Positions 2,584-26,618 of a DNA stretch of 33,308 nucleotides are shown here, one piece after another (positions within the stretch are counted from its first letter, which is position 1; each line of letters begins with the position of its first letter). Origin of the DNA: Candidatus Micrarchaeota archaeon. GTDB lineage: Archaea > Micrarchaeota > Micrarchaeia > Anstonellales > J096. The notes under the pieces were generated by a model that did no database searches, was not told where the DNA came from, and worked only from the letters and a program-made list of their open reading frames with translations. Made by a program: the position numbers and the translations under genes. The stretch is taken from contig JANXEC010000002.1 in assembly GCA_025058915.1 (NCBI GenBank), positions 1 through 33,308 on the forward strand, in the 5' to 3' direction.

Positions 2584-2586
2584 CTC

Positions 2587-3768
2587 ATGGAGATTATAGT
2601 AGATCTTCATGTACATGGAAGATATGCAAGAGCAACTTCATCTAGACTAAATCCAAGAACTATGAGGAAGGCTGCTATCCAAAAAGGAGTTAATGTTCTT
2701 GGGACAGGTGATTTTACACACCCAGAATGGTTCAGAGAGTTCAAGGAACTAGAAGAGAGAGATGGCTTGCTGTTCTTAGAGGAATTTCCATTCATGTTGT
2801 CTGTAGAGGTTAATAATGTTTTCGAATACAGAGGGAGGGTTTTGACAATACATAATGTGATAATCACAGATTCTTTGGAATCTGCAGAGCAGATATGTGA
2901 TTATCTGGGTAAATACGGAGATCTAAGTAAGGACGGTAGACCTAATATAAATCTTTCTATGGTTGAAATGATGGATTCGTTGAAATCTATGAATCCCAGA
3001 ACAGAGGTATTTGCAGCTCATATCTGGACACCTTGGTTCTCGATACTTGGAGCAAGAAATGGTCTTAGATCGATATATGAAGTAATAGATAGTAGATTGT
3101 TAGCTGTGGAGACAGGTCTGAGTGCGGATCCTGAGATGACATGGAAAACTCATGCAGGTGATTTTCCAATCATCTCTAATTCAGATGCACACAGTCTAGA
3201 AAACATAGGCAGAGAGGCTACCAAGATAGAGGTAAGTGATCTGTCCTACCAGAGTATAATAAGGAGTATCAGAGAGAGGAAGATACTGAAAACCTATGAA
3301 TTCTACCCTCAGGAAGGGAAGTACTACTACGATGGCCATAGGAATTGTGGAGTGAGTCAACATCCTGATGAATCTATTTCTAATCTGAACATATGCAAGA
3401 AATGTGGTAGAAAACTAACCATAGGAGTTCTGCACAGATCTATGGAATTGAAAGACAACATTAGCAGACCTCATCAGAAATTCCAATATATAATCCCTCT
3501 CAAATCAATCCTTTCATATGTGATGGGGGTGGAGGAATCTAGTAAGAGAGTTGAGAGAGAATACGAGAGAATCATAAAGGTGTATGGAACAGAGATGAAT
3601 GTTTTTGATAGTTATAGTAGAGAGATATTAGTGAGTCTGTTTGGTTCGGAGATGGGTAACAAGATGTATAGGATTCTGAGCGGTGGTATAGATTGGGAAC
3701 CTGGATATGATGGTTTATATGGAAGGTTTAGACTCAAGGAGCAGAATCTCCTAGAGCAACTGAAATGA
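2587..3768 (+). CDS. PHP-domain protein of the endonuclease Q (EndoQ) family with a C-terminal Zn-finger-like CxxC
   Basis: N-terminal PHP metal motif DLHVHGRYARATS. Also GTGDFTHPEW, GRPNINLS, AHIWTPWFS, ETGLSADPEM, ISNSDAHSLENIGRE, CKKCGRK and a terminal GYDGLYG. This pattern matches what I recall of Pyrococcus EndoQ and its homologs. Confidence 0.6.
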   Translation: MEIIVDLHVHGRYARATSSRLNPRTMRKAAIQKGVNVLGTGDFTHPEWFREFKELEERDGLLFLEEFPFMLSVEVNNVFEYRGRVLTIHNVIITDSLESAEQICDYLGKYGDLSKDGRPNINLSMVEMMDSLKSMNPRTEVFAAHIWTPWFSILGARNGLRSIYEVIDSRLLAVETGLSADPEMTWKTHAGDFPIISNSDAHSLENIGREATKIEVSDLSYQSIIRSIRERKILKTYEFYPQEGKYYYDGHRNCGVSQHPDESISNLNICKKCGRKLTIGVLHRSMELKDNISRPHQKFQYIIPLKSILSYVMGVEESSKRVEREYERIIKVYGTEMNVFDSYSREILVSLFGSEMGNKMYRILSGGIDWEPGYDGLYGRFRLKEQNLLEQLK

Positions 3769-4135
3769 TGAATACACTTATGTAGAGCTGTGCAACTGTT
3801 GGTATTCTGTGTTTGTATACAAGAGTTGTGGCTAATATCATAAGGACATAGATAATCAGGAACACAGGGAGATATGTAATATCCTGAAGCAGACTTATAG
3901 AATTAGCTATGTGTAGATAGTCTGATCTATCGACGAAATTTCTACGTATGGCTACAGATATCGTCTCATAGACTATGAACGTGATGGTGAGAGAGACTAT
4001 CCATAGGATATATCTATCTGTGTTTACAAGCACTAGGGATGTTATGAGTAATGACAATGGAAGATTAGGAACAACGTATCGGAGATCGTAATATACTAGT
4101 ATTACCAATGATATAATCAGTAGTTCATATATCAT
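3734..4135 (-). CDS. Small 5-TM membrane protein, possibly a minimal A24-type (prepilin/preflagellin peptidase-like) aspartyl peptidase
   Basis: Five hydrophobic segments. YYDLRYVVPN after TM1 resembles the first Asp motif (D-[LF]-R-x3-[IV]-P-[ND]) of the A24 family. ALGD at the C-terminus resembles the GxGD motif. ATGA overlap with the upstream dUTPase-family gene. Confidence 0.35.
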   Translation of the reverse strand: MIYELLIISLVILVYYDLRYVVPNLPLSLLITSLVLVNTDRYILWIVSLTITFIVYETISVAIRRNFVDRSDYLHIANSISLLQDITYLPVFLIIYVLMILATTLVYKHRIPTVAQLYISVFIISVALGDSAP

Positions 4136-10192: not shown

Positions 10193-11260
10193 ATGTCAAA
10201 AATCAGAATAGAGTTAAATGTATCACTCAATAGTAGAGAGGATCTATCCTTGCATTACACCCCTGGAGTTGGAAAGATTGTGGAGGAATTGAGCAGAGAC
10301 AGGAGCAAGGTATTTGATCTGACATACAGAGGTGATTTTGTGGCTATTCTATCTAATGGTACCTCTGTGCTTGGATATGGTAATTTAGGACCTGTCCCGA
10401 TGATGCCTGTTCTCGAGGGTAAATCTCTCATACTGAGAAGGTTTGGTAGAGTAAACCCAATTCCAATATCAATCAGAGGTAATCACAGAGATATCTATGA
10501 TATAGCAATGAGAATACAAGATAATTATTCACTCATAATGATAGAGGATGTTGCTGGACCTGAATGTATTGAATTACATGAAATGCTTAACAGAGATCTA
10601 GAGATTCCTACATTCAACGATGATATGTTTGGTAGTGCTATTATCACTCTATCAACTCTCAAGAGAGCAATCCATATACTAGGCAAGGATGATCCTAAAG
10701 TGATTGTGTATGGTGCTGGTGCTGCAGGCCTGACAGTATCTAAATACCTGAGAGCAATACAAATAAATAGGGTAATAGTTTTTGATTCCAAAGGATCATT
10801 GAGCAAGAGCAGAACTGATATGAATGAATATAAGAAGGAGATTGCAGAGATGTACGATATCAAAGATGTATCACTGAAAGAGGCTCTCAAGGGAGCTGAT
10901 GTATTTATAGGCTTCTCCAGAGGAAATGTCATACATAGGGATCATGTTAGATTGATGAACAGAGATGCAGTGGTTTTTGCATTAGCGAATCCAATTCCTG
11001 AGATAGATGAGAGAGAGGCAATGTCTGCAGGAAATGTCAGGATATATGCAAATGGTAGGAGTGATAATAAGAATCAGATCAACAATTCATTAGTTTTCCC
11101 ATCGTTAGTTTCATACATGGCACTCAGGAGAGTTAAATTAGATGACAGACTGATTGAGAGAGCGATTGATATAATATATAGATACAACACAGATAGACTT
11201 GTTCCAGATATGTTTGATATGGGATTTCATGAGTATCTCTTCAGGTCACTTAGCATGTGA
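10193..11260 (+). CDS. NAD(P)-dependent malic enzyme (short prokaryotic type, divergent)
   Basis: LHYTPGVG, PVLEGKSL, IEDVAGPEC, FNDDMFGSA (canonical HDDQHGTA), VYGAGAAG, VFALANPIPEI, GRSDNKNQINNSLVFP. The track ORF starts at TTG/GTG 10016, but that extension crosses the divergent promoter. ATG 10193 is preferred. Confidence 0.8.
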   Translation: MSKIRIELNVSLNSREDLSLHYTPGVGKIVEELSRDRSKVFDLTYRGDFVAILSNGTSVLGYGNLGPVPMMPVLEGKSLILRRFGRVNPIPISIRGNHRDIYDIAMRIQDNYSLIMIEDVAGPECIELHEMLNRDLEIPTFNDDMFGSAIITLSTLKRAIHILGKDDPKVIVYGAGAAGLTVSKYLRAIQINRVIVFDSKGSLSKSRTDMNEYKKEIAEMYDIKDVSLKEALKGADVFIGFSRGNVIHRDHVRLMNRDAVVFALANPIPEIDEREAMSAGNVRIYANGRSDNKNQINNSLVFPSLVSYMALRRVKLDDRLIERAIDIIYRYNTDRLVPDMFDMGFHEYLFRSLSM

Positions 11261-12863
11261 AAATATACTCTTGTGGTCTGTCCTTCCTTACATAACCGAC
11301 TCTGGATAGATAGAGTCTCTCCTCGGTTTCGTACTTCTTTGGGATTATGCCTGTGATTGTTTCCATGGAATTAGGATTCAGCTCCTCGCCTAGCATAAGT
11401 TCATGGGGAATTTTTAGAGTCACTTCCAGAGGCTTGTCTATCCAATCCGTAGGAGGTAGGTTGGAATCGGTCTGGTATGAGATGTATTCATCACCGACTC
11501 TCTTCACTGTCCCTAATCCCCTGAGGTTCATTATCTCAGACAATTCTTTCTCATCTATATACAATTCTCCTTCCCAGTAGAATCTATCTGAATTCTTCTC
11601 TTTCAGTATCCTGGTGTGTATTTTCACAGGGTTCTTTATGAAAGATACTCTGGGTATATTCCTGTCTCTATCTAAGAATTCTCTATTGATCTGCAGTAAC
11701 ATACCCCATTCCACTTCAGTCTCCTGCTTCCCAGGGCCTAGTCTAGATACAAATTCCCTGATTGCTTTTGGTAATATTCCTCTCCTCCTGAGTGCTCTGA
11801 CAGTAGTCAGTCTGGGATCATCCCATCCTTCGACTATATTTTTCTCTACGAGTTCTCTGATCTTCCGCTTGGATGTAACACTACCTTTTATCTCCAGCCT
11901 AGAGAAGTGTATTAGGAATATATCCCTTAATCCTAGATCTCTGAGTATAGAGTAATACAGCTCAGTTCTGAGTTCATACTCTTTAGATCTCAAAGCGTAA
12001 TTTACCATCTCTATACTATCTAAGATAGGTGTGGCAAAATCATATGTAGGCCAGAACCTGTATTTGTTCCCGTGTCTATAATGGGGATGATCGACTACTC
12101 TGAACATTGTGGGGTCTCTCATTGTTGTGTTCGGAGATTTTAGATCTCCTTTGTATAAAGCAACTATCTCTCCCTCTCTGTATTCCCCATCTATGGCTGC
12201 TCTAAACATATCCAAGTTCTGTTCTGTAGAATTGTTCCTGTCACTCACTGGTAATCCACTTCTCCTCATCTCTGCTATTTCATCCTGTGAGGCCGTGGTT
12301 AGGTAGATCTTATCCATTTTTATTAGTTTCTCTGCATGTTCATACAGAACATCCATATAATCCGAGGAATGTGTAACAGAACTATATTTTATGTTCAACC
12401 ACTGAATATCATCCATGATTGCATTTTCGTATTCCTGAGAAACCTTCTCAGGATTTGTATCATCGAATCTTATTATCAACTTTCCACCATACTTCTCTAG
12501 ATAGAATATATTCAAGAATACAGATTTGCAATGGCCTATGTGCATGTATCCAGATGGTTCTGGTGCAAATCTAAGAACCAGATACGAAGGGTTGTATGGT
12601 AGGTTATACCTCTTCTCGTCTCTTGTGTATTCCTGATAGTCATACTGATTAAATTCTTTCTCTGCCTCTCCAGGATCTAGAGTGTTGACACTATTTATTA
12701 TCTCATTCAGAATGGGTATTATATCTTTTACTCTACTCTTCAATTCAGGATGCTCATACAGTACCCAGCTGATGGTTGATTTCAGATCTGCCTTGCCATA
12801 TTCTATTCTGTTCTTCAGAGCCTGTTTTCTGAAGTCGTTGTAATATCTTTCTAGATCCTCCAT
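11250..12863 (-). CDS. gltX: Glutamyl-tRNA synthetase, archaeal/eukaryotic type
   Basis: RFAPEPSGYMHIGH (HIGH motif), the class I catalytic core, VTSKRKI in the KMSKS position and a C-terminal anticodon-binding beta-barrel region. The 537-aa length fits. Confidence 0.85.
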   Translation of the reverse strand: MEDLERYYNDFRKQALKNRIEYGKADLKSTISWVLYEHPELKSRVKDIIPILNEIINSVNTLDPGEAEKEFNQYDYQEYTRDEKRYNLPYNPSYLVLRFAPEPSGYMHIGHCKSVFLNIFYLEKYGGKLIIRFDDTNPEKVSQEYENAIMDDIQWLNIKYSSVTHSSDYMDVLYEHAEKLIKMDKIYLTTASQDEIAEMRRSGLPVSDRNNSTEQNLDMFRAAIDGEYREGEIVALYKGDLKSPNTTMRDPTMFRVVDHPHYRHGNKYRFWPTYDFATPILDSIEMVNYALRSKEYELRTELYYSILRDLGLRDIFLIHFSRLEIKGSVTSKRKIRELVEKNIVEGWDDPRLTTVRALRRRGILPKAIREFVSRLGPGKQETEVEWGMLLQINREFLDRDRNIPRVSFIKNPVKIHTRILKEKNSDRFYWEGELYIDEKELSEIMNLRGLGTVKRVGDEYISYQTDSNLPPTDWIDKPLEVTLKIPHELMLGEELNPNSMETITGIIPKKYETEERLYLSRVGYVRKDRPQEYIFTC

Positions 12864-12884
12864 GTGTGTTGTATCTTGGATTCG

Positions 12885-12893
12885 TTTTAAAAA
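12885..12893 (-). promoter_or_regulatory. TATA box (TTTTTAAAA on the minus strand) for gltX, overlapping the stop codon of the upstream gene
   Basis: Centred 26 nt upstream of the minus-strand ATG at 12863. It covers the TAA (12887-12889) of the 274-aa ORF. Confidence 0.45.
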
Positions 12894-13711
12894 TTCAGCT
12901 CTTCATATATCTTGTTCTTCTCCTCTCTGTTTAGAGACCGGAGAGAGAAGATCAGTAGTTTTGATAGAGATAGTGCCTGGTCTGTATCGTAGAATGCAAG
13001 AGATGATAGAAAAACCTGTTTGATCTGCTCTATCATACTATTCTTATTCTCATCGATTTTGCTCTGAATTGCAGGTATGCTTGTTCTGTTCATGAGTTTG
13101 GTCATCTCAACTATCTTCTTATCTATTCTGAATATTTCTTTGAATTTCTCCTTGATAATCTTGGGTAGAAGATTTGGATTGTAGCCTAGAGGAAATATAG
13201 AATTATACATCATATAACTTATCACTTCAGGAGAATATTTTAGATCGTTCTCTATAACAAACACCAATCCTTGGATCTTCATTATGTTATCTTCAACGTC
13301 ATCAGATTCAAACACATCATCAATCATCTTCTGTATCTGTGATTTCTCCAAAACTCTCCTCTTGGCTCTGAAATAATCATATATCAAATACACAAGAGGA
13401 TCATAGTCTCCAACTGCGTATGGTCTTACTTCATTCAGCAATACCTCTATGTAATCCTTGAGCTCTGGACTTTGCTGGATCCTGTCTAACAAGATATTCG
13501 CCTCCTGTATTGTTATTCTTAACTCTACAAGTATCTGAACAGCCCTCTTGATGTATTCCTGATCTAGATACCTCTGAAATAGTTTTATGTTTATGATCGC
13601 AAGATGTAGTTTATCTTCTTCTGTTAGATGCTTGGATTTTCTGAATGCATTCTCTGCTAATTGCAAATATCCATTAGCATACAACACCTTTGCAACTATA
13701 TTATATATCAT
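12887..13711 (-). CDS. All-helical hypothetical protein, third gene of the SMC-like ATPase operon
   Basis: No recognisable motifs and predicted to be helical. ATGA overlap with the upstream ATPase gene (13708-13711). Confidence 0.6.
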   Translation of the reverse strand: MIYNIVAKVLYANGYLQLAENAFRKSKHLTEEDKLHLAIINIKLFQRYLDQEYIKRAVQILVELRITIQEANILLDRIQQSPELKDYIEVLLNEVRPYAVGDYDPLVYLIYDYFRAKRRVLEKSQIQKMIDDVFESDDVEDNIMKIQGLVFVIENDLKYSPEVISYMMYNSIFPLGYNPNLLPKIIKEKFKEIFRIDKKIVEMTKLMNRTSIPAIQSKIDENKNSMIEQIKQVFLSSLAFYDTDQALSLSKLLIFSLRSLNREEKNKIYEELNF

Positions 13712-15957
13712 TCTGTATCCACCTTCGTATAGTTAATCGATGTATCTCTAGACATATCTCTATTCAGAGATATAACCATGTTCCATGATATATTTGTTTT
13801 GATTTTTTCATCGTGAGTTATGATAATGAACTGATCTATGTGCTCTAGATAGAGTTTATTGATATTATCAATCAAAGAATCTATCGCGCTTTCGTCTAGG
13901 TTATGGGTAGGTTCATCAAGTATCATTACTCTTAGGTTCTTTGTGACTAGTGATAGAATTGCCATTCTCAGGGCCAAAGCATACATAGTCTTCTCACCTC
14001 CACTCAATCTATCTGCAGTAACCTGATTATTACCTGATCTTATGACTAGAACATACCCTGAGTCTTCTACCTCTATCTTAGGATCTGAATACACACCAGA
14101 ATAGTACAGACTGTTCCAGTACATACTGAAATACATGTTGATCTTATTTATTAGATTCCTTCTCCTCCTGTTCTGTAGATCTTCCATCCTCATGTGTATC
14201 TCAATTAGCTCCTGAACTATCTTCCTGAGTATCTCGAGTCTTTCGCGTTTGGAATTGTATTCATTCACCTTTGTCTTCAGATAGTTTAGCCTCTGTTTGG
14301 AATCATCTATACTCTTATCATCTCTTTTCAGAGTTTCTTTGATTGCTCTGAGCTCACTACTGATCTTTACATATTCAGAATTCCAGGTGTTGTATCTGTT
14401 CTCATCTATATCTAATCTTTTGATCTCATCCAGGAGCTTTGCCCTTTCGAGACTCAGATCTTCCTTTCGCTTCCTCTTCTGTTCTATAAGATGTTTTGTT
14501 TCACTGAGAGATCTAAGTCTTTCTCTCTCACCTATTAAATCTTTCTCAGATACTTTAGGTTCGTCTGGAATATTGATCTGTCTCAATCTCTCCTGCCTAT
14601 TGTTGAGTTCGGTCTCGATGGATTTCAGTTTCTCATCTATAGCTCTGATGCTTGATTCTGAGTCTGATATTTTTGACTTAAGTGTTTCTATGGTAATATC
14701 TATCTCTCGGATTCTGTTCTGTGTATTTGAGTTCATTCTCTCAAGTTCCGAGTATCTGATGTATCCTAATACTGCAATTGGTAGGGCGATTGCAATTAGA
14801 TATGGATTAATAGAGGATAGGAGCAGGACAATCATAATACTTATCCCATATATCTGTATATTCCTATCCTGCAGAGGAGGAACAATCTTCAATTCTGATC
14901 TCTGTGTCTGCAGAGTTTGGATATTCTGAGTGTCTTGATCTATCTGCCGATAGATATTTTCTCTCTGAGATTTTAGTTCTTTGATAGATGATTCTATGTT
15001 CTCTACCTCTGTCTCTAACCTTATTCTTTCTTCTTTCAACTTTGTTATGTTCTCTATCGTAGAGCTGATTAATTCTATTTCTCTATCTATCTCCAGAATT
15101 CTTTGTTCTATTCTTTGAAATCCTCCTAATCTCTCTATGTCTTCTGTTATTCTCTTTATTTCCTCATCAATACTTTTGATCTGACCATCTATCCGGTTCA
15201 GTGTCTGTTTGGCATTCAAATACTTCTGATACCTATCTGTGATATTGCTCTCTTCTTTCTTCATCTGATCATATCTCACAGCAAGTTCGTTGTATTGTTT
15301 CTGATGTATCTCCCTATCGTTCTCATGGCTCTTGAGTCTCTCTAACTCTCTCTGGTATTCCTCTAGATCTTTTTTGTAACTATCTATGTTATTCGATAGC
15401 TCTTTGATTCTCTTCTCCCCTTCATTTATGATTCTTTTCAACATATCGATTCTACCTTGAAATTCCTCTATACCGAGTATTCTATCTAAGTATTCTTTGA
15501 TCTGTTTTGGCTGTAGATCCATTATCTGGTATATCCCATCCTGTGCTCCATAGAAAACATTTGCAAATATAGACTCATCTACGTTCAGTAATTTCAATAC
15601 TATATTTCTTACCTCATTATCATTCTCAGATATCTTCTTGTCATCAACATACATAATCACTCTTTCTGGTTTGTTCCTGGACAGAATTCTGGTTATTTTG
15701 CATTTCCTATTATTGATTGCGAATTCCACCTCCACAGTGGCAGTATCAGATCCATCTCTGATATATTCCTTCTTTGTTGTCCTATTTATTTTTCTGTATC
15801 CCTCCCTTATCTCTCCAAACAATCCATAAACTATTCCTTCTATTATACTAGTCTTCCCTGATCCATTCTTACCATGTATGAGTATCTTACCCTTTCTGAA
15901 TTGGATCTGTGTGTCCTTATGGGACATCCAATTCTTAAGTGTGATCTTTGTTATCAT
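13708..15957 (-). CDS. Rad50/SbcC/SMC-superfamily ABC ATPase with a long coiled coil interrupted at its midpoint by a hydrophobic helical hairpin
   Basis: Walker A HGKNGSGKTS (aa 28-37), signature LSGGEKT, Walker B VMILDEPTHNLD and H-loop IIITHD. About 600 aa of E/K/R/I/L coiled coil lie between the head halves. The hairpin IQIYGISIMIVLLLSSINPYLIAIALPIAVLGYI spans aa 367-400 of 749. There is only one Cys, so no CxxC hook. Confidence 0.75.
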   Translation of the reverse strand: MITKITLKNWMSHKDTQIQFRKGKILIHGKNGSGKTSIIEGIVYGLFGEIREGYRKINRTTKKEYIRDGSDTATVEVEFAINNRKCKITRILSRNKPERVIMYVDDKKISENDNEVRNIVLKLLNVDESIFANVFYGAQDGIYQIMDLQPKQIKEYLDRILGIEEFQGRIDMLKRIINEGEKRIKELSNNIDSYKKDLEEYQRELERLKSHENDREIHQKQYNELAVRYDQMKKEESNITDRYQKYLNAKQTLNRIDGQIKSIDEEIKRITEDIERLGGFQRIEQRILEIDREIELISSTIENITKLKEERIRLETEVENIESSIKELKSQRENIYRQIDQDTQNIQTLQTQRSELKIVPPLQDRNIQIYGISIMIVLLLSSINPYLIAIALPIAVLGYIRYSELERMNSNTQNRIREIDITIETLKSKISDSESSIRAIDEKLKSIETELNNRQERLRQINIPDEPKVSEKDLIGERERLRSLSETKHLIEQKRKRKEDLSLERAKLLDEIKRLDIDENRYNTWNSEYVKISSELRAIKETLKRDDKSIDDSKQRLNYLKTKVNEYNSKRERLEILRKIVQELIEIHMRMEDLQNRRRRNLINKINMYFSMYWNSLYYSGVYSDPKIEVEDSGYVLVIRSGNNQVTADRLSGGEKTMYALALRMAILSLVTKNLRVMILDEPTHNLDESAIDSLIDNINKLYLEHIDQFIIITHDEKIKTNISWNMVISLNRDMSRDTSINYTKVDTE

Positions 15958-16691
15958 ATCTTTCTAATCGACAGAGAGAATTTATTAAAGTATAGGTTTG
16001 CTCCTAGTATTATCATAAAAGGTAGTAAGAAAAAAGTGTTTATGAACAGCATCACGTATCTTGAGATCTCCAGAGGGAATAATAGATCTAATAAGAACAA
16101 TATAGCTATGTAAAATACTATCCCCACTACTGCATACATAAACGGATATAATGCTAATTCTCTCCTAAATAGCAATAATTTCCTGATAGCAGTGTCAAAG
16201 TCAACTCCCTCTATGACGATTGCATACGGTATGAATAGAATTACATAATTCATTATCAAGAATACAACAGATATGTAAAAAGTATCAATAGACAACACAT
16301 ATGCAAATATAGTGATATTGAATTGTATCAGGAACCATACTAGAAGGAATTTATACACCTCTGGATAGGAATTGAGGATCTGTTTTATGAATAGATTCCT
16401 AGAGAGTTCTTCACTCCTGTACTCTCTGGTCGCAATTGTCAGAGTCACAAAAACTAATGTGTATATTCCCATAACTAGCAAAAACACCATAAGAGGTAAT
16501 ACCAATCCGAATAGATCTATCTCAGTTATCTTTGATATCCTCAAGAATATTCCTGTAACTGAAATATAAATATAATCATCAAACAGAAACAGAAGCACTA
16601 GAATACTAAGCAGAATCACAATACCTGATAGAGCCACTAGATCTAATCCTGTTCTGTATACATTCCATGAACTCCTGAGCTCGAAGAGCAT
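15954..16691 (-). CDS. Polytopic membrane protein (about 6-7 TM), first gene of the SMC-like ATPase operon
   Basis: Hydrophobic throughout. ATGA overlap with the downstream ATPase gene (15954-15957). Confidence 0.65.
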   Translation of the reverse strand: MLFELRSSWNVYRTGLDLVALSGIVILLSILVLLFLFDDYIYISVTGIFLRISKITEIDLFGLVLPLMVFLLVMGIYTLVFVTLTIATREYRSEELSRNLFIKQILNSYPEVYKFLLVWFLIQFNITIFAYVLSIDTFYISVVFLIMNYVILFIPYAIVIEGVDFDTAIRKLLLFRRELALYPFMYAVVGIVFYIAILFLLDLLFPLEISRYVMLFINTFFLLPFMIILGANLYFNKFSLSIRKI

Positions 16692-16695
16692 ATCT

Positions 16696-16720
16696 ATATT
16701 TAAAGCTTAGGGTTTAAAAA
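16696..16720. promoter_or_regulatory. Two TATA-like boxes (ATATTTAAAG, TTTAAAAA) in a 46-bp divergent intergenic region
   Basis: 16713-16720, read on the minus strand, is centred about 25 nt from the minus ATG at 16691. 16696-16705 lies about 38 nt upstream of ATG 16738, which is preceded by AGGTGA (16726-16731). Confidence 0.4.
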
Positions 16721-16737
16721 TAATCAGGTGAGAATAT

Positions 16738-17403
16738 ATGGCACTTTTGGATGAGGAAACAAAGAAAGCAATAAAGGATTACCTATCGAAGATGAGAGAT
16801 GTGGTAGAATTGGTTGTTGTGATAGATAGAAACTCTAAGAATTGCATGTATTGTGATGAGATCAAACAGCTGTTCGTTGAACTGGATGAGCTCAAAGTTC
16901 CGAAACTCAAGATCAAGTTGATTGAGAAATATGATGATAATGTCAAAGTATCTTACGATATATCTCCTGATCAGGTTCCTATAATTCTGATCAGAAACCC
17001 TAACATAAAAGCCTATATCGCATATAGAGGGATTCCTGCAGACCATGAATTTGGATTGTTCCTTGAGACTATTCTAGAGGTATCTACAGGACATGTTCAT
17101 CTATCTGAGGATCAGATCAATAAGGTCAAGAACATAAAGGAGAGTGTTAAGATAGATGTGTATGTAACACCTTCCTGTCCATACTGCCCTGCAGCGGTGG
17201 CATCTGCATACATGCTTGCTATGATAAATCCAAACATCAAGGCATATGCAGTGGAGGCAACAGAATTTCCAGAGGAGAGTAATAGATATAGAATAAGAGC
17301 AGTGCCTACTGTAGTAATAAATAATGGGCAGAATAGGTTTGAGGGAGCATTACCTATAGATAGGTTCATTGCAAAGATAGAGGAGACTCTATCTAAAAAA
17401 TGA
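16738..17403 (+). CDS. Protein disulfide oxidoreductase (glutaredoxin-like, two thioredoxin-fold units; PfPDO type)
   Basis: Two CxxC sites, NCMYCDE in the N-terminal unit and PSCPYCPAAV in the C-terminal unit. The C-terminal AVPTVVIN carries the cis-Pro motif. The 221-aa length fits. Confidence 0.8.
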   Translation: MALLDEETKKAIKDYLSKMRDVVELVVVIDRNSKNCMYCDEIKQLFVELDELKVPKLKIKLIEKYDDNVKVSYDISPDQVPIILIRNPNIKAYIAYRGIPADHEFGLFLETILEVSTGHVHLSEDQINKVKNIKESVKIDVYVTPSCPYCPAAVASAYMLAMINPNIKAYAVEATEFPEESNRYRIRAVPTVVINNGQNRFEGALPIDRFIAKIEETLSKK

Positions 17404-18470: not shown

Positions 18471-18869
18471 ATGCATGTAGTTGAAACCAGAGCAGATCTA
18501 CTGATCAGAAAGTTAGCTGAGAGACTCAAGGGTGAACTACCCAAACCAGAATGGGTGGATTATGTTAAGGCAGGGGTGTATGCGGAGAGACCTCCTGAGA
18601 GCGAGGATTTCTGGTGGATCAGAGCTGCAGCTATCATGAGAAAACTATATCTCAATGGATCTATAGGGGTGAGTAGGATGAGAAGGCTGTATGGTAAGAG
18701 GAAGAAGAGGGGGGTAAAGCCAGAACACAGATATCCAGCAGGAGGTAAGATAATAAGAAATATATTTCAGGGTCTTGAGAGGCTTGGTTATGTTAAGAGA
18801 ACTGAGAGAGGGAGAGAACTTACTGGGAAAGGGAGAGCTCTCTTGGATGAACTGGCTAAAGGACTATGA
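18471..18869 (+). CDS. rps19e: 30S ribosomal protein S19e
   Basis: MHVVETRADLLIRKLAERLKG..PEWVDYVKAGVYAERPP..DFWWIRAAAIMRKLYL..GVSRMRRLYG...LERLGYV. The track start at 18450 is TTG inside the promoter, so ATG 18471 is preferred. Confidence 0.85.
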   Translation: MHVVETRADLLIRKLAERLKGELPKPEWVDYVKAGVYAERPPESEDFWWIRAAAIMRKLYLNGSIGVSRMRRLYGKRKKRGVKPEHRYPAGGKIIRNIFQGLERLGYVKRTERGRELTGKGRALLDELAKGL

Positions 18870-19183: not shown

Positions 19184-20722
19184 ATGGGGGTAATAGATAT
19201 AATTTTGCTCAATATACCAATGCTTGCAATAGGTTTAGGTATTGGTATATCTATATCGGTAATGATGTATTTCTATAATGTTATATTCAACAAAGACCAA
19301 GCAAAAGCACTCGATACAACCAAAGATGTTCTCATAATTGTACTATATATAGCCATGCTGTTTGTTATAGATGGATTCTACGGAATGTTTCTATCGAGTT
19401 GGTTAGGGATAAGTGCAACATCTTCAAGTGGCCTCAGAATCGCAGAGGCGGTTATATACAAAGACATAGACAAATTCAGAGAGACATTGTTCTATATCTA
19501 CATAACTGATTTCCTGTTCAGTCTAGCAGGATCTTTCAATGCTCACTTACATGTTGGCCTGAACCCAGAGCAGAGCAAACTATCTGGATCATCCATAATC
19601 AGAGGATTGGCAGGTCCATTTGCCAGTATGATGGGAGGGAAGGCTGCAGTGGATCCGTACAAAGCAGACATATCGATCGATCTTATGGGTAAGATGGGAT
19701 CTAGTATTCAGTTGCTCTACAATGCATCATATGGATTGTTCCTGGTATTAGTATATAAATACATCAAATTAACAGTAATCACCTATTTGCCTCTGATTAT
19801 GTCTATATTTATACCCATGGCCCTGGTGTTGTTGTTCATCCCTATCACTAGAAAGGTAGGTCTCACTATCATAGGTTTGGCAATAACCCTCTACTATCTC
19901 TTCCCAGTCTTCATTATATACTCAGACACTGTTCTTAGGAGGATGCCTGATTTTGATCATAGATACATATCATCGTACATATCCCCTACAATCGTAGAAT
20001 TTCTAGATAGATCCTATTCACCTAACAATCCATCACAGAGTATAGGATATAAATATGCATTTCTGGAGAGGGAAAGAAGAATTGCAAGTGTGATGAATGA
20101 TTATGTGTTCCTGGAGCAAGATACTAGTAACATTATGGAACCTGATAAGAATAATATTTTAGCCAACAGAACCAAAGAGGGCATGGGTATTATGTATGTA
20201 TATTCCTTCGTTGATGCACAATCTGTATGTGAGAGGAATGTTTATGACACAGAGGTTTGTAAGGAGTACCAAACACAGAATGTAGGGGATTTCAGATCAG
20301 AAAACGCATTAGCTCCTGTGGGATCTTTCTACATGAATGTTGTAAAGTATTCTGGATTGGTTAGGATGAGTGCTGGGTTGGCAGAATTGTCTAAGGTTAT
20401 CAAAGGAACTACTCCCCTGACTATGATCATAGGGAGTATGCTGGGGATCGCTTTGAACATTCTCTCATTTGCACTGTATGCAAGTATGCTCCTACCTATA
20501 CCTGGTCTATCGCAGATACTCTATGGATTCTTGGGTATTCCATTCTTACCATTCCTACTCTTCAAGACTGCACTGGAGGCAGCTCTGATAGCATACAAAG
20601 TTATTATATATGGATCAATTACTATCTTTTTAGATATATTTCTCATAATAACAGGCTACAGAGCAGTGGCATCTGTGATAGGGGCCGAACAGAGAATATT
20701 AGGATTGGAGAAGGTGTTGTAG
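19184..20722 (+). CDS. Paralog A (512 aa) of an unassigned polytopic membrane protein family
   Basis: About 9-10 hydrophobic segments. The core block LLFIPITRKVGLTIIGLAITLYYLFP is at aa 216-241 (nt 19829-19906). A hydrophilic loop of more than 100 aa contains a C-x9-C pair (nt 20228-20260). The C-terminus is GAEQRILGLEKVL. Confidence 0.85.
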   Translation: MGVIDIILLNIPMLAIGLGIGISISVMMYFYNVIFNKDQAKALDTTKDVLIIVLYIAMLFVIDGFYGMFLSSWLGISATSSSGLRIAEAVIYKDIDKFRETLFYIYITDFLFSLAGSFNAHLHVGLNPEQSKLSGSSIIRGLAGPFASMMGGKAAVDPYKADISIDLMGKMGSSIQLLYNASYGLFLVLVYKYIKLTVITYLPLIMSIFIPMALVLLFIPITRKVGLTIIGLAITLYYLFPVFIIYSDTVLRRMPDFDHRYISSYISPTIVEFLDRSYSPNNPSQSIGYKYAFLERERRIASVMNDYVFLEQDTSNIMEPDKNNILANRTKEGMGIMYVYSFVDAQSVCERNVYDTEVCKEYQTQNVGDFRSENALAPVGSFYMNVVKYSGLVRMSAGLAELSKVIKGTTPLTMIIGSMLGIALNILSFALYASMLLPIPGLSQILYGFLGIPFLPFLLFKTALEAALIAYKVIIYGSITIFLDIFLIITGYRAVASVIGAEQRILGLEKVL

Positions 20723-21811
20723 ATGGGTTCTATCCTAGGGAGTCTAGGTACATTCACCATGACATTAATAGGAATAGTAGTAGTGTATATGGTATTACTT
20801 TATGTTCTATCTAGACTGGCTAAGAATGAGGAGTGGAACCAGAATTTCAAGATAGAATTCAAACAGCTCCTCCTGAGTATTATGATATATGTAAGTATAT
20901 TTGGAATATCAAACGCAGTGCATCAACTGTATTCAACGTATTCTGTAGGTACAGATCTTTTCAGTTTCATATCAACCCAACTCATAATGATGTTGAAGAA
21001 CCTGCAATTCTATGCCTCTCATCTCATGCTATCTGCTAGTATGATGAAAATGTATGGAGAGTTTACAAATATAGGTTATCCACATGGATCATATGGATCT
21101 GCAAGGTTAGTAGCTTTCCCTGGGATTGATCTGTTGGCATCTGTAACGTTTCAGATAAGAGATATCATAATGATAGCTACGGGTGGATTGGTGGTTCAGT
21201 CCGTGGCTATGGATCTGATCAGAAACTTAGCCCTTACAGTGGTATTACCCATAGGCGTTATACTTAGAATATTACCCATCACGAGACAGTTTGGTAATGA
21301 GATGATAGGTCTGAGTGTAGCGATGTACCTCATATTACCTCTGATGTATTTTGTTTTTCTTAACACAATTGCAGAGATCAGCGATGATAGAGGAGGATTC
21401 ATGAAGAGATTCACAAACCAATATCTAGGTCTGAATTCTAATGACGTAATAGAACCAGACAAGATATTTGTGAACCTCATGAATAATAAATCCAATAATG
21501 GCATTGAACAGGGAGAGAGAACTCTGAAGGACTATTTCGATACATACTACAAGAGAGAGATCGACAGAGAGATTCAGGAGAAAACATCAACTCCTGATGA
21601 AATATACAGAACTTTTGAAGTCTACATGACAATCAGTCTGATCCAATCTAGCTTTGTGATAACTCTACCCATACAGTTCCTATTCATGTATTCTCTGTAT
21701 CTATATGCATCTGGATTTCTAGTGTTTGGTTTCGGTTTGCCTGGATTTGCTCTAGCAATAACACTGACCGCTGCAAAGAGCATAAGAGATTCACTAGAGA
21801 GGTTGGTATAA
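20723..21811 (+). CDS. Paralog B (362 aa) of the same membrane protein family
   Basis: The ATG abuts the stop of A. The core block LRILPITRQFGNEMIGLSVAMYLILP is at nt 21263-21340. The C-terminus is KSIRDSLERLV. There is no Cys. GGTG lies 6 nt upstream of the ATG. Confidence 0.85.
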   Translation: MGSILGSLGTFTMTLIGIVVVYMVLLYVLSRLAKNEEWNQNFKIEFKQLLLSIMIYVSIFGISNAVHQLYSTYSVGTDLFSFISTQLIMMLKNLQFYASHLMLSASMMKMYGEFTNIGYPHGSYGSARLVAFPGIDLLASVTFQIRDIIMIATGGLVVQSVAMDLIRNLALTVVLPIGVILRILPITRQFGNEMIGLSVAMYLILPLMYFVFLNTIAEISDDRGGFMKRFTNQYLGLNSNDVIEPDKIFVNLMNNKSNNGIEQGERTLKDYFDTYYKREIDREIQEKTSTPDEIYRTFEVYMTISLIQSSFVITLPIQFLFMYSLYLYASGFLVFGFGLPGFALAITLTAAKSIRDSLERLV

Positions 21812-21812
21812 G

Positions 21813-23015
21813 ATGAACCCTATCTTCCAAGCGATCATGCCTGTGGTGTTGCTATCTATTCTTATATACATAATCGCCCAATTGGTTGCTAGAGTGCTGA
21901 ATAAACCAGATGTGGTTGGATATATGAATTCCGAACTACTTGGAATATTGATATTTTTGACTATATTAGTTACATTGGTTCATGTGATAGATCTAATTGT
22001 TTATGGAAGTGTTTCGATTCTCAATCCAACTGCAAAACAAGACATATGTGATGCAAACGGAATATCCATACACAGATGTCATGTTACTATTGCTGGATAT
22101 TTCTTAGAGAGTATTCTGAGAGAACTTACGGATTACTATATACAACTGAATTCTCTATCGTTGATTGTAAGTTTTGTCAAGTCACTCTATGGAGTGAAGG
22201 CAATTCAGGGAGATAAGTTTGTGAAACTGAATTTCATGGGATTTGTACACATACCCGAATCCTACATAGATCCATTGATAGGTTTGACACAGAGTATGTT
22301 ACAGTTTGGGATAGCACAGTTTATGATATTATGGTACATTACATCACCCCAATTCTTCGTTGGATTCTTAAGTCTAGGTTTGGTATTGAGATTGTTTGCA
22401 CCAACCAAGAGTGCTGGTGGTTTGATAATAGCTCTGGTGTTAGGGCTATATTATGTATTTCCTATGGCATATGTTTTGATAGATGTTCATTACAGAAATG
22501 CATACGATGGAACATATGGTTTTAACAAGATCAATACTTTTAGAATCACAGATCATCTCCTATCAGCATTTGGATTACCATTTTCTAGTGAAATAGAAGG
22601 GGCTATAAATGCCCTGAGAGAGGTACAGAGATCATATGACGGGTCTCAGTCAGGCACTTCCAATCCAGATTCTGCAGCATCATCAGTAGCAGGATCTATA
22701 TCATATCTATCTAGTCTAGTAGCATTGATTATGAAAATATCTGTGATAGTGAGTGCTCTCTTCATACCTCAATTGCTCTCTTTCATACCTGGAATTATAA
22801 CAGGATATACTCTGTTGGCAGATGTGTCCCCACAGGTTTTCTTGGGGAGTGTGGTGAGAGTACCTGTGATACTTCTAAACATATATACTGAGTTCTTCCT
22901 TATCTTTGCAGTACTGATCTACATATCTCTGATCAGTACTATTGCTTTTATTAAAACATTCTCTCCTATATTGGGTGGTGACGTTGAGATTGCTGGTATT
23001 ACTCGTTTTATTTAG
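21813..23015 (+). CDS. Paralog C (400 aa) of the same membrane protein family
   Basis: A 1-nt spacer follows B. The core block LRLFAPTKSAGGLIIALVLGLYYVFP is at nt 22386-22463. A C-x9-C pair (CDANGISIHRC) is present. The C-terminus is GGDVEIAGITRFI. Confidence 0.85.
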   Translation: MNPIFQAIMPVVLLSILIYIIAQLVARVLNKPDVVGYMNSELLGILIFLTILVTLVHVIDLIVYGSVSILNPTAKQDICDANGISIHRCHVTIAGYFLESILRELTDYYIQLNSLSLIVSFVKSLYGVKAIQGDKFVKLNFMGFVHIPESYIDPLIGLTQSMLQFGIAQFMILWYITSPQFFVGFLSLGLVLRLFAPTKSAGGLIIALVLGLYYVFPMAYVLIDVHYRNAYDGTYGFNKINTFRITDHLLSAFGLPFSSEIEGAINALREVQRSYDGSQSGTSNPDSAASSVAGSISYLSSLVALIMKISVIVSALFIPQLLSFIPGIITGYTLLADVSPQVFLGSVVRVPVILLNIYTEFFLIFAVLIYISLISTIAFIKTFSPILGGDVEIAGITRFI

Positions 23016-24252
23016 TGTATTTGTATATGCATCTAGTTGCGATCAGGGTGGATTTATCAGTGAGGAGTGTCTAGAGAGAGATATATTTGGAAAATTCGAC
23101 CAGAATTCATTTGAAGCAGCTATCAAGAAGATATTTCAAGATACCAAAACCAGCACTATGAACATGATAGAGAATTTTATAGTTAATGTGATAGCTCCAT
23201 ACACAGTATGTAAATCCACCAATCCGGTGGATGCAACCACACTACTCAACACCACAGCAGTTATAGTATTCATATCGATGATGCTAGTGTTTATACTGAA
23301 TGGAGTTGCATCTATGCTTGGTAGTCAGTGGAGGATCTCTGTACTAGAGGAGGGATTACAGGGATTGATATCTATCCTCGTGGTTCTGATTATAGTGTCT
23401 GTTCTGAATTACTACACTACTAACAATATATTCCAAGAATCCAAGAAGTACATAGTGAATCTGATTGTTAATTTCTCGTTCTTCACAATGCTACTGAAGA
23501 CTCTTGAGACTATGATGATTGGATTATCAAACCTAACTTTGCCATTTGGACCTCCCGATGCCAGAGGGATATTCAGTATATCCTTCTCCCAACTCTTCAC
23601 AATCATCTTCAAATCTCTAGATGTGATAAAGGGATTCTTCAGTCTAGGAATTCTGGAATACGTGTTTAAATTGTTCATCCTATGTATCGGACCTCATGTG
23701 ATAATACAGATATTACTCCCTGTAGGCATACTCATGAGAGCATTCTACTTCACAAGACCAGGAGGAAATGTGTTGGTGGGTATATCAATAGCCTTCATAA
23801 TGATATATCCTATCATAATGTATGTATATTCAAAAATCTACAACAGTATTTCGATGATATGGGATGTATACTTAACAGAATCTGTGTATAGACTTTTGGT
23901 AGGTATTATGGGAGGAATAGCTATTGTATTAATACCTCTAGCCATAAAGGCATTCATAGGCATGACCTTTAACCAAATAGCAAACATTGCAGGTATAGCA
24001 AACATATGGATGGCAATCAGGAGAAATGTAGAGATAATTAATATGAATTCATTTGGAATAGCATCAGTATTGAATCTAACTCAAATAGTACCTGTTCTGT
24101 ACTATCTGGTATTTGGATATCTCCAGCTCGCACTGATCTTCGGAGCAATACTAGGTCCTCTAGCCCTATACCTCACAGTATCCTTAACAGGTCAGATAAG
24201 CAGAGCTCTTGGTACTGAGATAAACATAGCTGCTCTGTCGAGGTTGATATAA
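22978..24252 (+). CDS. Paralog D (about 424 aa) of the same family, with an N-terminal signal peptide and lipobox-like Cys
   Basis: The track start at 22942 is TTG. The next in-frame ATG is 72 codons downstream, so a non-ATG start is needed (candidates GTG 22975/22978, TTG 22984/22990). That would give (M)TLRLLVLLVLFSVFVYASS|C. The core block MRAFYFTRPGGNVLVGISIAFIMIYP is at nt 23734-23811. A C-x9-C pair (CDQGGFISEEC) is present. The C-terminus is GTEINIAALSRLI. Confidence 0.75.
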   Translation: MTLRLLVLLVLFSVFVYASSCDQGGFISEECLERDIFGKFDQNSFEAAIKKIFQDTKTSTMNMIENFIVNVIAPYTVCKSTNPVDATTLLNTTAVIVFISMMLVFILNGVASMLGSQWRISVLEEGLQGLISILVVLIIVSVLNYYTTNNIFQESKKYIVNLIVNFSFFTMLLKTLETMMIGLSNLTLPFGPPDARGIFSISFSQLFTIIFKSLDVIKGFFSLGILEYVFKLFILCIGPHVIIQILLPVGILMRAFYFTRPGGNVLVGISIAFIMIYPIIMYVYSKIYNSISMIWDVYLTESVYRLLVGIMGGIAIVLIPLAIKAFIGMTFNQIANIAGIANIWMAIRRNVEIINMNSFGIASVLNLTQIVPVLYYLVFGYLQLALIFGAILGPLALYLTVSLTGQISRALGTEINIAALSRLI

Positions 24253-24253
24253 T

Positions 24254-25639
24254 ATGAGCATCTCACATGATAAACCCAACATAGATGAGAATGCAATACA
24301 GATGAATGTAGACCAGATGATAGGTTTGTTATCGAGTACATGCACAGATCCTATCAAAGATAGATGTAGAATGGAGGATCAGACCATAGCAGAGATATTC
24401 GAATCTATCAAACCTCAACTGGGATTGTTCAGTAAAGCTATAGACGAGGCTGTTGACAAGGCTATAGGGAATCTCTACAGACTAGGAGCAGGAGGCATGG
24501 GGATATTCGAAGATAAATACTGTGGATACGTACAGAATCTTGGTTATATTACATCGATGATAGGTTGGGGAATGATAGTGGTATTGTCTTACATTTTAAT
24601 AGACTTCATTGCTAGGATCATAGGGAACTCAAAATACTCTGCAATAGCAAGGAGAGAGATATTTGAAATAATAATACTCATCCCGCTCCTACTGGCATTG
24701 CTCAATCTACCTTGTGTGTTGAGGTTGAATGATAATGTTCCTATACACTCAAAGTCTCTTCTATATATACATTCTGCTATTATTTCCTCTATGATATCCA
24801 TAATACCGATCAGTTACTATGGAGCCAGTGTTGCAATGCATTCAATAACGATAGTCCAGAACCTAGGGGGAGGTGCACCTCAGACGGCTCCTCTTGCAGC
24901 CCAATACTATGAATCTGCTCTATCTCTGGCCAAGCAGGCAGCAACATTTCTCACTCTATCTTTCATATGGGTAGGTACATTTGGATTTATGTTTGATATA
25001 TTCACATATGGATTTGTGAAGTACCTACTACCAATAGCCATAATTCTAAGATCAATTCCATTCACAAAGAGTCTAGGGGGTGGTCTGATTGGATTGATCA
25101 TAGCAACTAATTTATTCATCCCTATCATCCTATCTGTGAACTACGAACTCATAAAGATGTTTGGGCCAGGTTATTTCTACTACTCTGGAAACAATGTTAA
25201 GTTCAAGTTCAATCCATGGATTGAGATGGTTATTCATATATTTGCAGGTTTTGTGATCCTCATGTCAATACTTCAGTTGTTGATGGGATTCAGATTGTTT
25301 ATAGACGTAATCAATGCAATTCAGAGATTTAGGGTCTGGCAATCGATAAGAGAAGGATTTAGGAGATTGCTAGGGTCTCTGGTAGGTCAAGGTGGAGGAG
25401 TGGCATCCACTCTCATAGATATATTCATGGTTATGAGAGTTCTATCGGTACCTACGATCAGAACCTTTGCATTCCAAATACCATTACTGCTGCTGATTGC
25501 ATTCATCGTAGTTGCTGCAATCATATTCAACATTCTCTTACCAACACTCACATTCCTGTTCTTGACATCTACTATTAAGTATCTCTCATCTATGTTTGGT
25601 GAGGAATTTGATCTTGCTAACCTCACGAGGTTGATCTAG
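24254..25639 (+). CDS. Paralog E (461 aa) of the same family, with an N-terminal soluble extension of about 95 aa
   Basis: A 1-nt spacer follows D. The core block LRSIPFTKSLGGGLIGLIIATNLFIP is at nt 25046-25123. A C-x7-C pair (CTDPIKDRC) is present. The C-terminus is GEEFDLANLTRLI. Confidence 0.85.
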   Translation: MSISHDKPNIDENAIQMNVDQMIGLLSSTCTDPIKDRCRMEDQTIAEIFESIKPQLGLFSKAIDEAVDKAIGNLYRLGAGGMGIFEDKYCGYVQNLGYITSMIGWGMIVVLSYILIDFIARIIGNSKYSAIARREIFEIIILIPLLLALLNLPCVLRLNDNVPIHSKSLLYIHSAIISSMISIIPISYYGASVAMHSITIVQNLGGGAPQTAPLAAQYYESALSLAKQAATFLTLSFIWVGTFGFMFDIFTYGFVKYLLPIAIILRSIPFTKSLGGGLIGLIIATNLFIPIILSVNYELIKMFGPGYFYYSGNNVKFKFNPWIEMVIHIFAGFVILMSILQLLMGFRLFIDVINAIQRFRVWQSIREGFRRLLGSLVGQGGGVASTLIDIFMVMRVLSVPTIRTFAFQIPLLLLIAFIVVAAIIFNILLPTLTFLFLTSTIKYLSSMFGEEFDLANLTRLI

Positions 25640-26618
25640 ATGGATCAGTACCAAGTAATAGCAATAGGGATTGCATTCTTGGGTGTTATCATAGGCATTA
25701 TATTGTATCAGATCTCAAAGATCTTCAACCTAGGAGGTCTGAAGAGAATATCCGAGATATTCATATGGGAAGCTGGAGTTACGATACTACTGGCACTATT
25801 CATATTTCTCATAGTAGATAGGATGAATAGTTTTCTATTCGATGTATCCGAGATGATGTATAAAAGTATAGGTAGAGATATTTCCCAGATAACTCCAAAA
25901 ACACCTATGGCTGCTGCCAAGGCAGTCTTGAAGGAACTCATAAATAGTTGTTATCTCAGTACATATGGAATACTAGTACTGAACAGGATCGTACTTGAAT
26001 CCTTAGGATCCTCGATATCGGATTTGGGTGCAGAGGTCGGTAGGCTTCCTACTGCAACTGTGGCATATGCTCTGATATATATTTCAGATCTGCTGAGAAT
26101 AATGTTCTTCCTGCTATGGACCAGTATAGCAATGCTTAAGATCTTCCTATTCTTCTCAGCATACTACCCATTTCTGATCATGTTAGGTATAATTCTGAGA
26201 GCATTTGAACCTACAAAGTCTATGGGAGCATATCTGATCAGTCTAGGCATAGGATTATATATTGTATTACCAACAGCCTATACAGTAGGATTGGTCCTAA
26301 ATTATAATGATTTACTATGCAAATTGCCTGAATCTTTCAGAGGTGATCAGACACTTCAGATGGGGGTGGCAAATGCAATAGATATAGGCGAGAATGCAAA
26401 GAGTTTCATGGGATTTAGTAGTATGTTAGTTATGTTGTCTTCTGGTTTTATAATATTACTGAATCCTAACCTTATGGTATCTCTCATATACTCTGTCATG
26501 TCTCTGGCTCTGATTACTCCTCTGATAGCTTTCATAATAGCCCTGTCCTTTGTGAACATATCTACAACTGCTCTTGGAGGTAGAATAAGTGAAGTTGGTA
26601 GAGGATTGTTCAGATTGG

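Follow-up and report, generated by a model that had tools for sequence, protein, structure and literature searches.

What becomes of a Rad50-type ATPase when the zinc hook at its apex gives way to a hydrophobic hairpin? The zinc hook is regarded as a hallmark of Rad50/SbcC, and there is as yet no agreement among workers on Rad50 and SMC proteins about what apex pairing contributes to function. The question is raised by a three-gene operon of a Candidatus Micrarchaeota archaeon (contig JANXEC010000002.1), located on the minus strand at positions 12887-16691 of the 33,308-nt stretch that was analysed (hereafter the window). An earlier note on this DNA had listed three open reading frames (ORFs) at this place, and all three were confirmed there on the minus strand. 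They encode a 245-aa polytopic membrane protein (15954-16691; ORF list, AlphaFold2 model and alignments), a 749-aa Rad50-type ABC ATPase without a zinc hook (13708-15957; ORF list, motif and profile searches) and a 274-aa all-alpha TPR-like protein (12887-13711; ORF list, AlphaFold2 model and weak TPR matches). The comparisons described below favour, with modest confidence, an ATPase of the Rad50 lineage that became coupled to a membrane protein, in which a hairpin replaced the hook, and which may serve as a membrane-anchored clamp or tether for DNA.

Heads, arms and apex of the ATPase

A motif scan located the complete set of ABC motifs that the earlier note had claimed for the ATPase (starting at aa 29 and aa 651, and at aa 677-688 and 712-716). 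The Walker A motif GKNGSGKTS (aa 29-37; 15847-15873, on the minus strand as all the features of the triad) was invariant in the family, the signature LSGGEKT and the Walker B/D-loop VMILDEPTHNLD were found within aa 651-688 (13894-14007), and the H-loop IITHD occupied aa 712-716 (13810-13824). These motifs were conserved in the relatives with minor variants, namely MSGGE at locus L009 and DEPTYGMD and FVTH at locus L008. When compared with shuffled sequences, a heptad periodicity was detected in both coiled-coil arms, arm 1 at aa 166-360 (14878-15462; z = 13.0, 41% charged residues and one proline) and arm 2 at aa 405-600 (14158-14745; z = 5.4, 45% charged), and none was detected in the heads. 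The coiled coil had previously been put at about 600 aa; this value turned out to be the distance from motif to motif, the arms themselves amounting to 2 × ~195 aa. Arms of ~195 residues would correspond to roughly 28 nm of antiparallel coiled coil.

Among solved structures, the best matches of the ATPase were the Rad50 proteins of M. jannaschii (158 bits) and P. furiosus (~99 bits), whereas SMC heads reached ~35 bits, and its nearest solved relative was the entry of a DNA-bound M. jannaschii Rad50 complex. The best NCBIfam matches were the archaeal Rad50 equivalogs, and no match to the SMC hinge (SMC_hinge, PF06470) was obtained in the Pfam scan. Hence, the ATPase was assigned to the Rad50 type and not to SMC, so that only the first half of its previous description as “Rad50/SMC-like” was retained. 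The score on the equivalog models was 185 bits, compared with cutoffs of 700-1087. Nevertheless, the use of these cutoffs as a test between ortholog and paralog was rejected, given that an ATPase linked to Mre11 and used as control (P0008) scored 168 bits on the same models, below the window protein. Since this control misses the cutoffs too, missing them is uninformative.

The protein contains a single cysteine (C85) and no CxxC motif, so that no hook can be formed, as the earlier note had already pointed out. At the middle of the chain lies a 35-residue uncharged hydrophobic segment, NIQIYGISIMIVLLLSSINPYLIAIALPIAVLGYI (aa 366-400; 14758-14862), delimited from the charge distribution, the hydropathy and the apparent free energy of membrane insertion (dGapp). 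It is the longest uncharged stretch of the ATPase, centred at 0.51 of the chain, and a run of this length is not expected by chance in arms with 41-45% of charged residues. The segment is composed of two predicted helices of ~15-17 residues joined by N-P, with R/K on both flanks, and directly follows a degenerate hook position with the sequence IVPPLQD (aa 360-366). When the family was aligned with its hook-bearing relatives, the column holding the CxxC of every one of them fell on these same residues, just before the hairpin. The previous suggestion that NP-joined hydrophobic segments take the place of the hook at mid-chain was thus borne out by the alignment.

The dGapp summed for each half of the apex, calculated according to Hessa, was near or below zero in every member of the hairpin family. 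It was clearer in the relatives, where at least one half reached -1.3 to -3.7 kcal/mol, and the zinc-hook ortholog presented no comparable low-dGapp window. The apex sequence was poorly conserved; what was kept was the hydrophobicity (Kyte-Doolittle means of 2.3-3.0 over 30-43 consecutive uncharged residues), a length of 30-43 residues and an N, NP or G at the centre, and Gly-rich, GxxxG-like runs were present in the apex of P0003 and P0004. Because both arms have to exit on the same side, an inserted apex must be an in-in hairpin; with halves of 15-21 residues, it could either span the membrane as a short hairpin or form a re-entrant wedge. The derivation of the hairpin by copying a transmembrane segment of the 245-aa neighbour, or any other sequence of the window, was also considered and discarded, a permissive tblastn search having returned only noise.

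Distribution of the hairpin form and its hook-bearing sisters

An exhaustive hidden Markov model search of 1.84 billion representative proteins (50%-identity clusters) returned 28,796 matches, and the apex was inspected in the best 150 of them. A hydrophobic apex was present in four of these clusters (P0001, P0003, P0004 and P0106), all of them from metagenome-assembled genomes (MAGs) of Micrarchaeota/Anstonellales, and a mid-chain CxxC was found in 144 of the remaining 146. A word-indexed search retrieved only three close relatives, followed by hook-bearing Rad50s, and three more loci of the same clade (L004, L005 and L015) came from GTDB genomes and JGI metagenomes. Besides the window, the hairpin apex was observed in every member from seven independent loci, and the relatives of the triad came from ‘Candidatus Anstonellales’ or Micrarchaeota MAGs, which places the organism among the DPANN archaea; the family is limited to a handful of uncultured lineages. 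Its locus was single-copy and lay in a housekeeping synteny conserved across relatives. In the searchable open-access literature, no description of a membrane-hairpin apex in Rad50 or SMC was found, and only SbcE, discussed below, turned up.

Three further observations were made during these searches. Another of the best 150 matches, P0199 (825 aa), has no mid-chain CxxC and its apex is not hydrophobic, which may represent a different kind of hook loss. A viral or mobile origin of the family was rejected, the only IMG/VR match being a generic relative of 23% identity and the family locus not being on viral contigs. The possibility that the loci L006 (TPR-like partner only) and L018 (ATPase only) belong to one organism was excluded by their GC contents (36% vs 43%).

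Sister operons that still carry the hook were found by means of the profile of the 274-aa protein, which led to locus L008 (GCA_028282985.1); L017, with the same gene order, was found later. In both of them, genes for a 241-aa membrane protein, a 720-aa ATPase, a 259-aa partner and glutamyl-tRNA synthetase (GluRS) follow one another with overlaps at every junction, and the ATPase, which lacks a hydrophobic segment, bears a canonical zinc hook (CPVC) in the middle of its chain. Locus L014 (GCA_015520875.1) encodes a 762-aa ATPase, also hook-bearing (CPVC), whose start overlaps the end of the upstream gene in an ATGA; over its last 82 residues (...LVPFGIILASHFYFDKYTLSIREI), that upstream product shows clear homology with the 245-aa membrane protein. 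Since these sister operons keep the CPVC hook, the hook was literally replaced by the hairpin in the course of evolution. Additionally, the organism of L008 has a separate SMC, given that a canonical, hinge-bearing SMC of 1000 aa is encoded at 10375-13377 of this locus, two genes downstream of the triad and overlapping the end of the GluRS gene.

Neighbor-joining (NJ) trees with bootstrap were constructed from 58 Rad50-like proteins, and a repeat with capped distances gave the same result. The hairpin clade was recovered with 100% bootstrap, and it was joined by exactly the two hook proteins that are linked to a membrane protein (P0107 and P0108) with 94-95%, or 89% when only the heads were used. 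The group P0006-P0009 (97.5-99%) was separate from this membrane-protein-linked clade and includes the control P0008, which adjoins a 418-aa Mre11 and is the one member of the group with its context checked. Three close relatives with a zinc hook, P0110 (labelled Micrarchaeia), P0109 and P0005, are stand-alone genes near a protein disulfide oxidoreductase (PDO) or near S19e/dsDNA_bind, with no adjacent Mre11. The simplest reading of these trees would be that a Rad50 lineage was first joined to the membrane protein and that the hook gave way to the hairpin later, in one sub-clade.

The window ATPase shares with the canonical archaeal Rad50 of M. jannaschii and P. furiosus the full set of ABC head motifs, the antiparallel coiled coil and the mid-chain apex, and its length is similar to that of the short Rad50s retrieved in the search (720-790 aa). 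It differs from them in the hairpin in place of the CxxC hook, in the polytopic membrane protein as a partner, in belonging to a clade apart from the Mre11-linked group, and in the absence of adjacent Mre11, NurA or HerA. Because its heads and coiled coil are those expected of Rad50 and the zinc hook is missing, the protein is described as a hook-less derivative of Rad50 rather than as a canonical Rad50.

The nearest functional analogy to an SMC-like protein that handles DNA and has a hydrophobic apex is SbcE, a protein of about 960 aa from a Gram-positive bacterium. SbcE (YhaN) of B. subtilis is SbcC-like and has no CxxC; the central domain between its heptad regions is hydrophobic, with a conserved proline, and insoluble when expressed (PMC2811018). 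In competent cells it accumulates at the poles; it acts in DNA repair and transformation, and its partner is the nuclease SbcF/YhaO (PMC2811018). The resemblance lies in a hook-less SbcC-like ATPase with a hydrophobic centre and goes no further than this. In contrast to SbcE, the window ATPase reached 14.4 bits on AAA_27 (PF13514, the YhaN N-terminal domain; cutoff 22) and has no nuclease neighbour. Since it nests among hook-bearing Rad50-like proteins of archaeal MAGs, it is not counted as a member of the SbcE family, and its apex would have arisen independently of that of SbcE.

Other relatives with long arms were compared in the same way. Arcadin-4 (Rkd4, from Thermoproteales) belongs to a cytoskeletal cluster, and an origin from Rad50, recruited away from the Mre11 operon, has been proposed for it (PMC9389158). 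As a Rad50-derived archaeal ATPase of ~750 aa it resembles the window protein, with which its model NF053563 aligns over aa 2-690; however, the score was 103 bits against a cutoff of 860, and there are no crenactin or arcadin neighbours in the window. This match was considered generic, since the Mre11-linked control P0008 scored alike (106 bits). The archaea-specific proteins of the SMC superfamily (ASRPs) have a coiled coil and mostly a zinc hook (PMC9389158); unlike these proteins (coalescin ClsN, Sph1/Sph2), the window ATPase has no hook, and it scored 100.8 bits on NF045487 (cutoff 300). The SMC-kleisin complexes (Smc-ScpAB) likewise contain an ABC ATPase with long arms whose small partners are encoded alongside it, but the window ATPase is devoid of a hinge and matches SMC structures with ~35 bits, and its 274-aa partner is all-alpha and has no winged helix.

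Partner proteins and surroundings of the triad

The 245-aa protein had been described as having six to seven transmembrane segments. Its polytopic nature was supported, the AlphaFold2 model (pLDDT 79.9, pTM 0.77) showing six long helices, and the model added a short conserved beta-hairpin loop that the previous description did not include, with the conserved loop sequence DYIYISVTGIFLRISKxTEI. The invariant C-terminal tail, ILGANLYFNKFSLSIRKI, was modelled with low confidence. As judged from the sequence, positive charges gather in the even-numbered loops and in the C-terminal tail, which suggests an N-in/C-in topology. In a Foldseek comparison, the best structural matches were the sulfate permease CysZ (3tx3/6d79; probability 0.96-0.99, TM-score 0.45-0.58, E = 0.08-0.4), with CTL1 also among the best PDB matches, and no significant match was obtained in Pfam, NCBIfam, PADLOC or the PDB profile search. 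With structural matches to CysZ/EI24 of this E-value and no sequence-family match, the likeness of the predicted fold to CysZ is borderline.

The earlier note had considered this protein a dedicated partner of the ATPase. Its link to the ATPase was maintained in three divergent lineages forming one clade, and the membrane-protein/ATPase adjacency persisted where the remaining neighbourhood differs (L008 and L014); homologs of it also occur away from such an ATPase (L016 and L013). Because adjacency alone proves little, the link rests on this persistence and on the clade structure. In L016, a membrane-protein homolog of 28% identity (780-1499) overlaps by 4 nt a gene for archaeal Nre (1496-2665; Nre_N + Nre_C). 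Nre is a PCNA-binding DNA-repair family (PMC4929162), and its adjacency may be taken as a hint, from a single case, of a connection with DNA. The distant homolog P0105 at L013 stands alone and was set aside as uninformative.

The 274-aa partner was predicted to be all-helical, in agreement with the previous description: its AlphaFold2 model (pLDDT 86.8) consists of 14 helices without any strand. At 60-87% identity, its sequence is better conserved than that of the ATPase. TPR matches were weak and restricted to some of the orthologs (TPR_2 with E = 1e-4 in one of them), and one ortholog is named ‘TPR repeat protein’ by JGI. No significant match was found in Pfam, NCBIfam or PADLOC, the PDB sequence profile search was empty, and the model had no fold match in the PDB (best E = 0.46, TM-score below 0.3). 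A kleisin or winged-helix partner, which the earlier note had wished to see checked, was rejected on account of the all-alpha model and of this low TM-score.

The TPR-like gene accompanies the ATPase gene in two clades, that of the hairpin and that of L008, so that the three-gene linkage previously proposed is kept in the hairpin clade and in L008/L017; it does not extend to L006/L007, where the TPR-like protein occurs without the ATPase, nor to L014, from which it is absent. Furthermore, GluRS is an invariant neighbour of the TPR-like gene at every locus. For these three reasons, a functional link between the TPR-like protein and the ATPase is considered plausible but unproven. In L014, two paralogous proteins of 240 and 269 aa without a known family (2561-3283 and 3307-4116) are encoded downstream of the ATPase, in the place of the TPR-like partner, and both begin with ..VWR.(D/E)GP...

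Both junctions of the triad are 4-nt ATGA overlaps, as the earlier note had observed. Its reading of these overlaps as coupling was weakened, since 4-nt start/stop overlaps occur at 6 of the 21 same-strand junctions of the window, among them PDO/tyrosyl-tRNA synthetase (17400-17403) and S19e/dsDNA_bind (18866-18869), and at several others just 0-1 nt separate the genes, in what is a very compact genome. The triad is surrounded by archaeal housekeeping genes with ~38% GC (GluRS, PDO, the tyrosyl- and seryl-tRNA synthetases, S19e and RtcB). The absence of Mre11/SbcD, NurA and HerA previously noted for the operon was extended by profile searches to the whole 33-kb window, and no Mre11/Metallophos protein was found either in the window or in the fetched flanks of any family locus. 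The scans of the window for tRNA genes and Rfam families were empty.

The GluRS gene (11250-12863, minus strand; identified as an ORF and by locus comparisons) lies 23 nt 3' of the TPR-like gene. On the other side, a divergent intergenic region of 46 nt (16692-16737), in which two TTTAAA-type TATA-like boxes were recognised in the sequence, is likely the promoter of both the triad and the PDO gene. TATA-like boxes (TTTAAA/TTTTAAAA) were located ~25-30 nt 5' of the start codons of GluRS, the membrane protein and PDO (12864-12886 and 16692-16737), a spacing that suggests leaderless or short-leader transcripts. GluRS may have its own promoter, with the TATA-like box overlapping the stop codon of the TPR-like gene.

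The divergent PDO gene (16738-17403, plus strand; 198.5 bits on TIGR02187, which has a cutoff of 185) encodes two thioredoxin folds with CMYC and CPYC motifs. PDO adjoins a Rad50-like gene across Micrarchaeia (L001-L005, L008, L009, L011, L015, L017 and L019) in a variable arrangement, divergent and upstream of the triad in the window, and convergent and downstream of stand-alone hook-bearing ATPases elsewhere. It was located at 7315-7971 in L011, where FtsZ comes next after it, and at 2480-3127 in L019. Further along the window, six consecutive, tightly packed ORFs (19184-26623, plus strand; 512, 362, 400, 436, 461 and 327 aa) had no match in Pfam or NCBIfam; the first three are kept at the same position in L001-L003, L009 and L015, and the L015 ortholog of the 512-aa ORF has a hydrophobic N-terminus. 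A 336-aa ORF at 1542-2552 (minus strand) gave only weak matches of the coiled-coil type, to TPR_MLP1_2 and to pieces of SMC/Rad50 arms, and may encode a further protein with a long coiled coil.

Proposed role and rival explanations

In the mechanism favoured here, the hairpin would sit in the cytoplasmic membrane with both of its ends in the cytoplasm, as predicted from the sequence, and would probably lie beside the 245-aa membrane protein or pack against it. The two ~195-residue arms (~28 nm) would extend into the cytoplasm and carry the ATP-driven Rad50-type heads at their far end, and confinement in the membrane together with helix packing would replace the hook in holding the apices together. 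The ATP-dependent engagement of the heads would then clamp a substrate, most likely DNA by homology with Rad50, and the membrane could in this way retain chromosomal or incoming DNA. The TPR-like protein might serve as an adaptor close to the heads or the arms in the place of Mre11, this being the weakest part of the model. Membrane insertion, the DNA substrate and the roles of the partners are what we infer from these comparisons; the structural part of the mechanism appears quite probable, and the tethering of DNA as its function is put forward only tentatively.

Several observations weigh against this mechanism. The dGapp values of the window protein itself are marginal (-1.1 and +0.3 kcal/mol for the two halves, in 15-residue windows), and apex halves of 15-21 residues are short for a full span of the membrane. 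The NJ tree is a simple distance tree with long-branched sequences, and the close zinc-hook relatives P0109, P0110 and P0005 do without the membrane protein, homologs of which stand beside Nre (L016) or alone (L013). Likewise, the TPR-like protein exists without the ATPase (L006/L007), and close relatives share the synteny of the entire neighbourhood, so that adjacency is weak evidence in this compact genome.

One alternative is that the ATPase is simply the only Rad50 of its lineage, engaged in double-strand break repair with an Mre11 encoded elsewhere, the hairpin altering its location or the pairing of its apices and the neighbours being bystanders. Its heads are no less Rad50-like than those of the Mre11-linked control (185 against 168 bits), and 4-nt overlaps such as those of the triad are common in the window. 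It could indeed be the only Rad50 of the lineage, because P0109, P0110 and P0005, single hook-bearing genes in a similar neighbourhood (PDO, S19e, dsDNA_bind), stand alone without an adjacent Mre11 or membrane protein. However, the membrane-protein-linked ATPases form a well-supported clade of their own apart from the Mre11-linked group, the pair with the membrane protein survives in differing neighbourhoods (L008 and L014), and Mre11 is missing from the 33-kb window and from the fetched family flanks; this alternative as a whole is considered rather unlikely. A role unrelated to DNA, in which the motion of the heads would be passed along the arms to the hairpin and its partner for membrane remodelling, division, surface assembly or host contact, seems clearly improbable. 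It would suit an operon in which neither a nuclease nor any partner that binds DNA was found and in which the membrane protein resembles CysZ and a permease, as well as the precedent of arcadin-4, a protein of proposed Rad50 origin in a cytoskeletal cluster (PMC9389158). Nevertheless, the heads bear the full Rad50 signature and have a DNA-bound M. jannaschii Rad50 complex as nearest solved relative, the other protein coupled to a membrane-protein homolog is the DNA-repair factor Nre (PMC4929162), and an arm of ~28 nm is long for the transmission of mechanical force.

Regarding the apex itself, a buried, soluble dimerisation domain, with a four-helix bundle formed between two protomers, might have replaced the hook, as perhaps in SbcE, where the centre is hydrophobic and insoluble and membrane insertion was not demonstrated (PMC2811018). 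The marginal dGapp of the window protein agrees with such a domain, and the GxxxG-like, Gly-rich runs of P0003 and P0004 could pack protein against protein. Against it stand the 30-43 consecutive uncharged residues with Kyte-Doolittle means of 2.3-3.0, the hydrophobicity kept without sequence conservation, which is typical of lipid-facing helices, the basic residues on both flanks and the confinement of the hairpin to a lineage co-encoded with a membrane protein, so that a soluble apex is given little credit. Even less credit is given to a defence against phages or plasmids by an SMC-like system with a membrane effector, of the Lamassu, Wadjet, Dnd/Pbe or MADS kind. The ATPase did match PADLOC models (mad3 with 108 bits, LmuB with 89 bits, DndD and PbeC), but these matches are generic, do not exceed 108 bits and fall below the 185 bits of Rad50. 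Since, in addition, neither partner matches any defence model and the gene is single-copy in a conserved housekeeping synteny, not on viral contigs and with neither a patchy, island-like spread nor mobile elements as neighbours in the fetched loci, a role in defence is very unlikely.

As regards its meaning, the pairing of a Rad50-like ATPase with a putatively CysZ-like membrane protein in DPANN archaea had not been named before, and it gives SbcE of Bacillus, itself poorly understood, a counterpart among the archaea. Hook and hairpin differ between sister lineages with the same heads and the same membrane-protein partner, to which the L008 lineage adds the TPR-like partner, and this substitution inside an orthologous operon makes it testable whether membrane anchoring can stand in for apex pairing. 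A bolder proposal, to which only a low probability is assigned, is that this protein is the only Rad50 of these Micrarchaeota and that, permanently anchored in the membrane by its apex, it handles DNA at the cell envelope together with a membrane protein of its own. It might, for instance, capture, tether or process DNA where the symbiont touches the host on which it relies for nucleotides. If this were true, the family would demonstrate, as an experiment made by nature, that confinement to the two dimensions of a membrane can do the work of the zinc hook.

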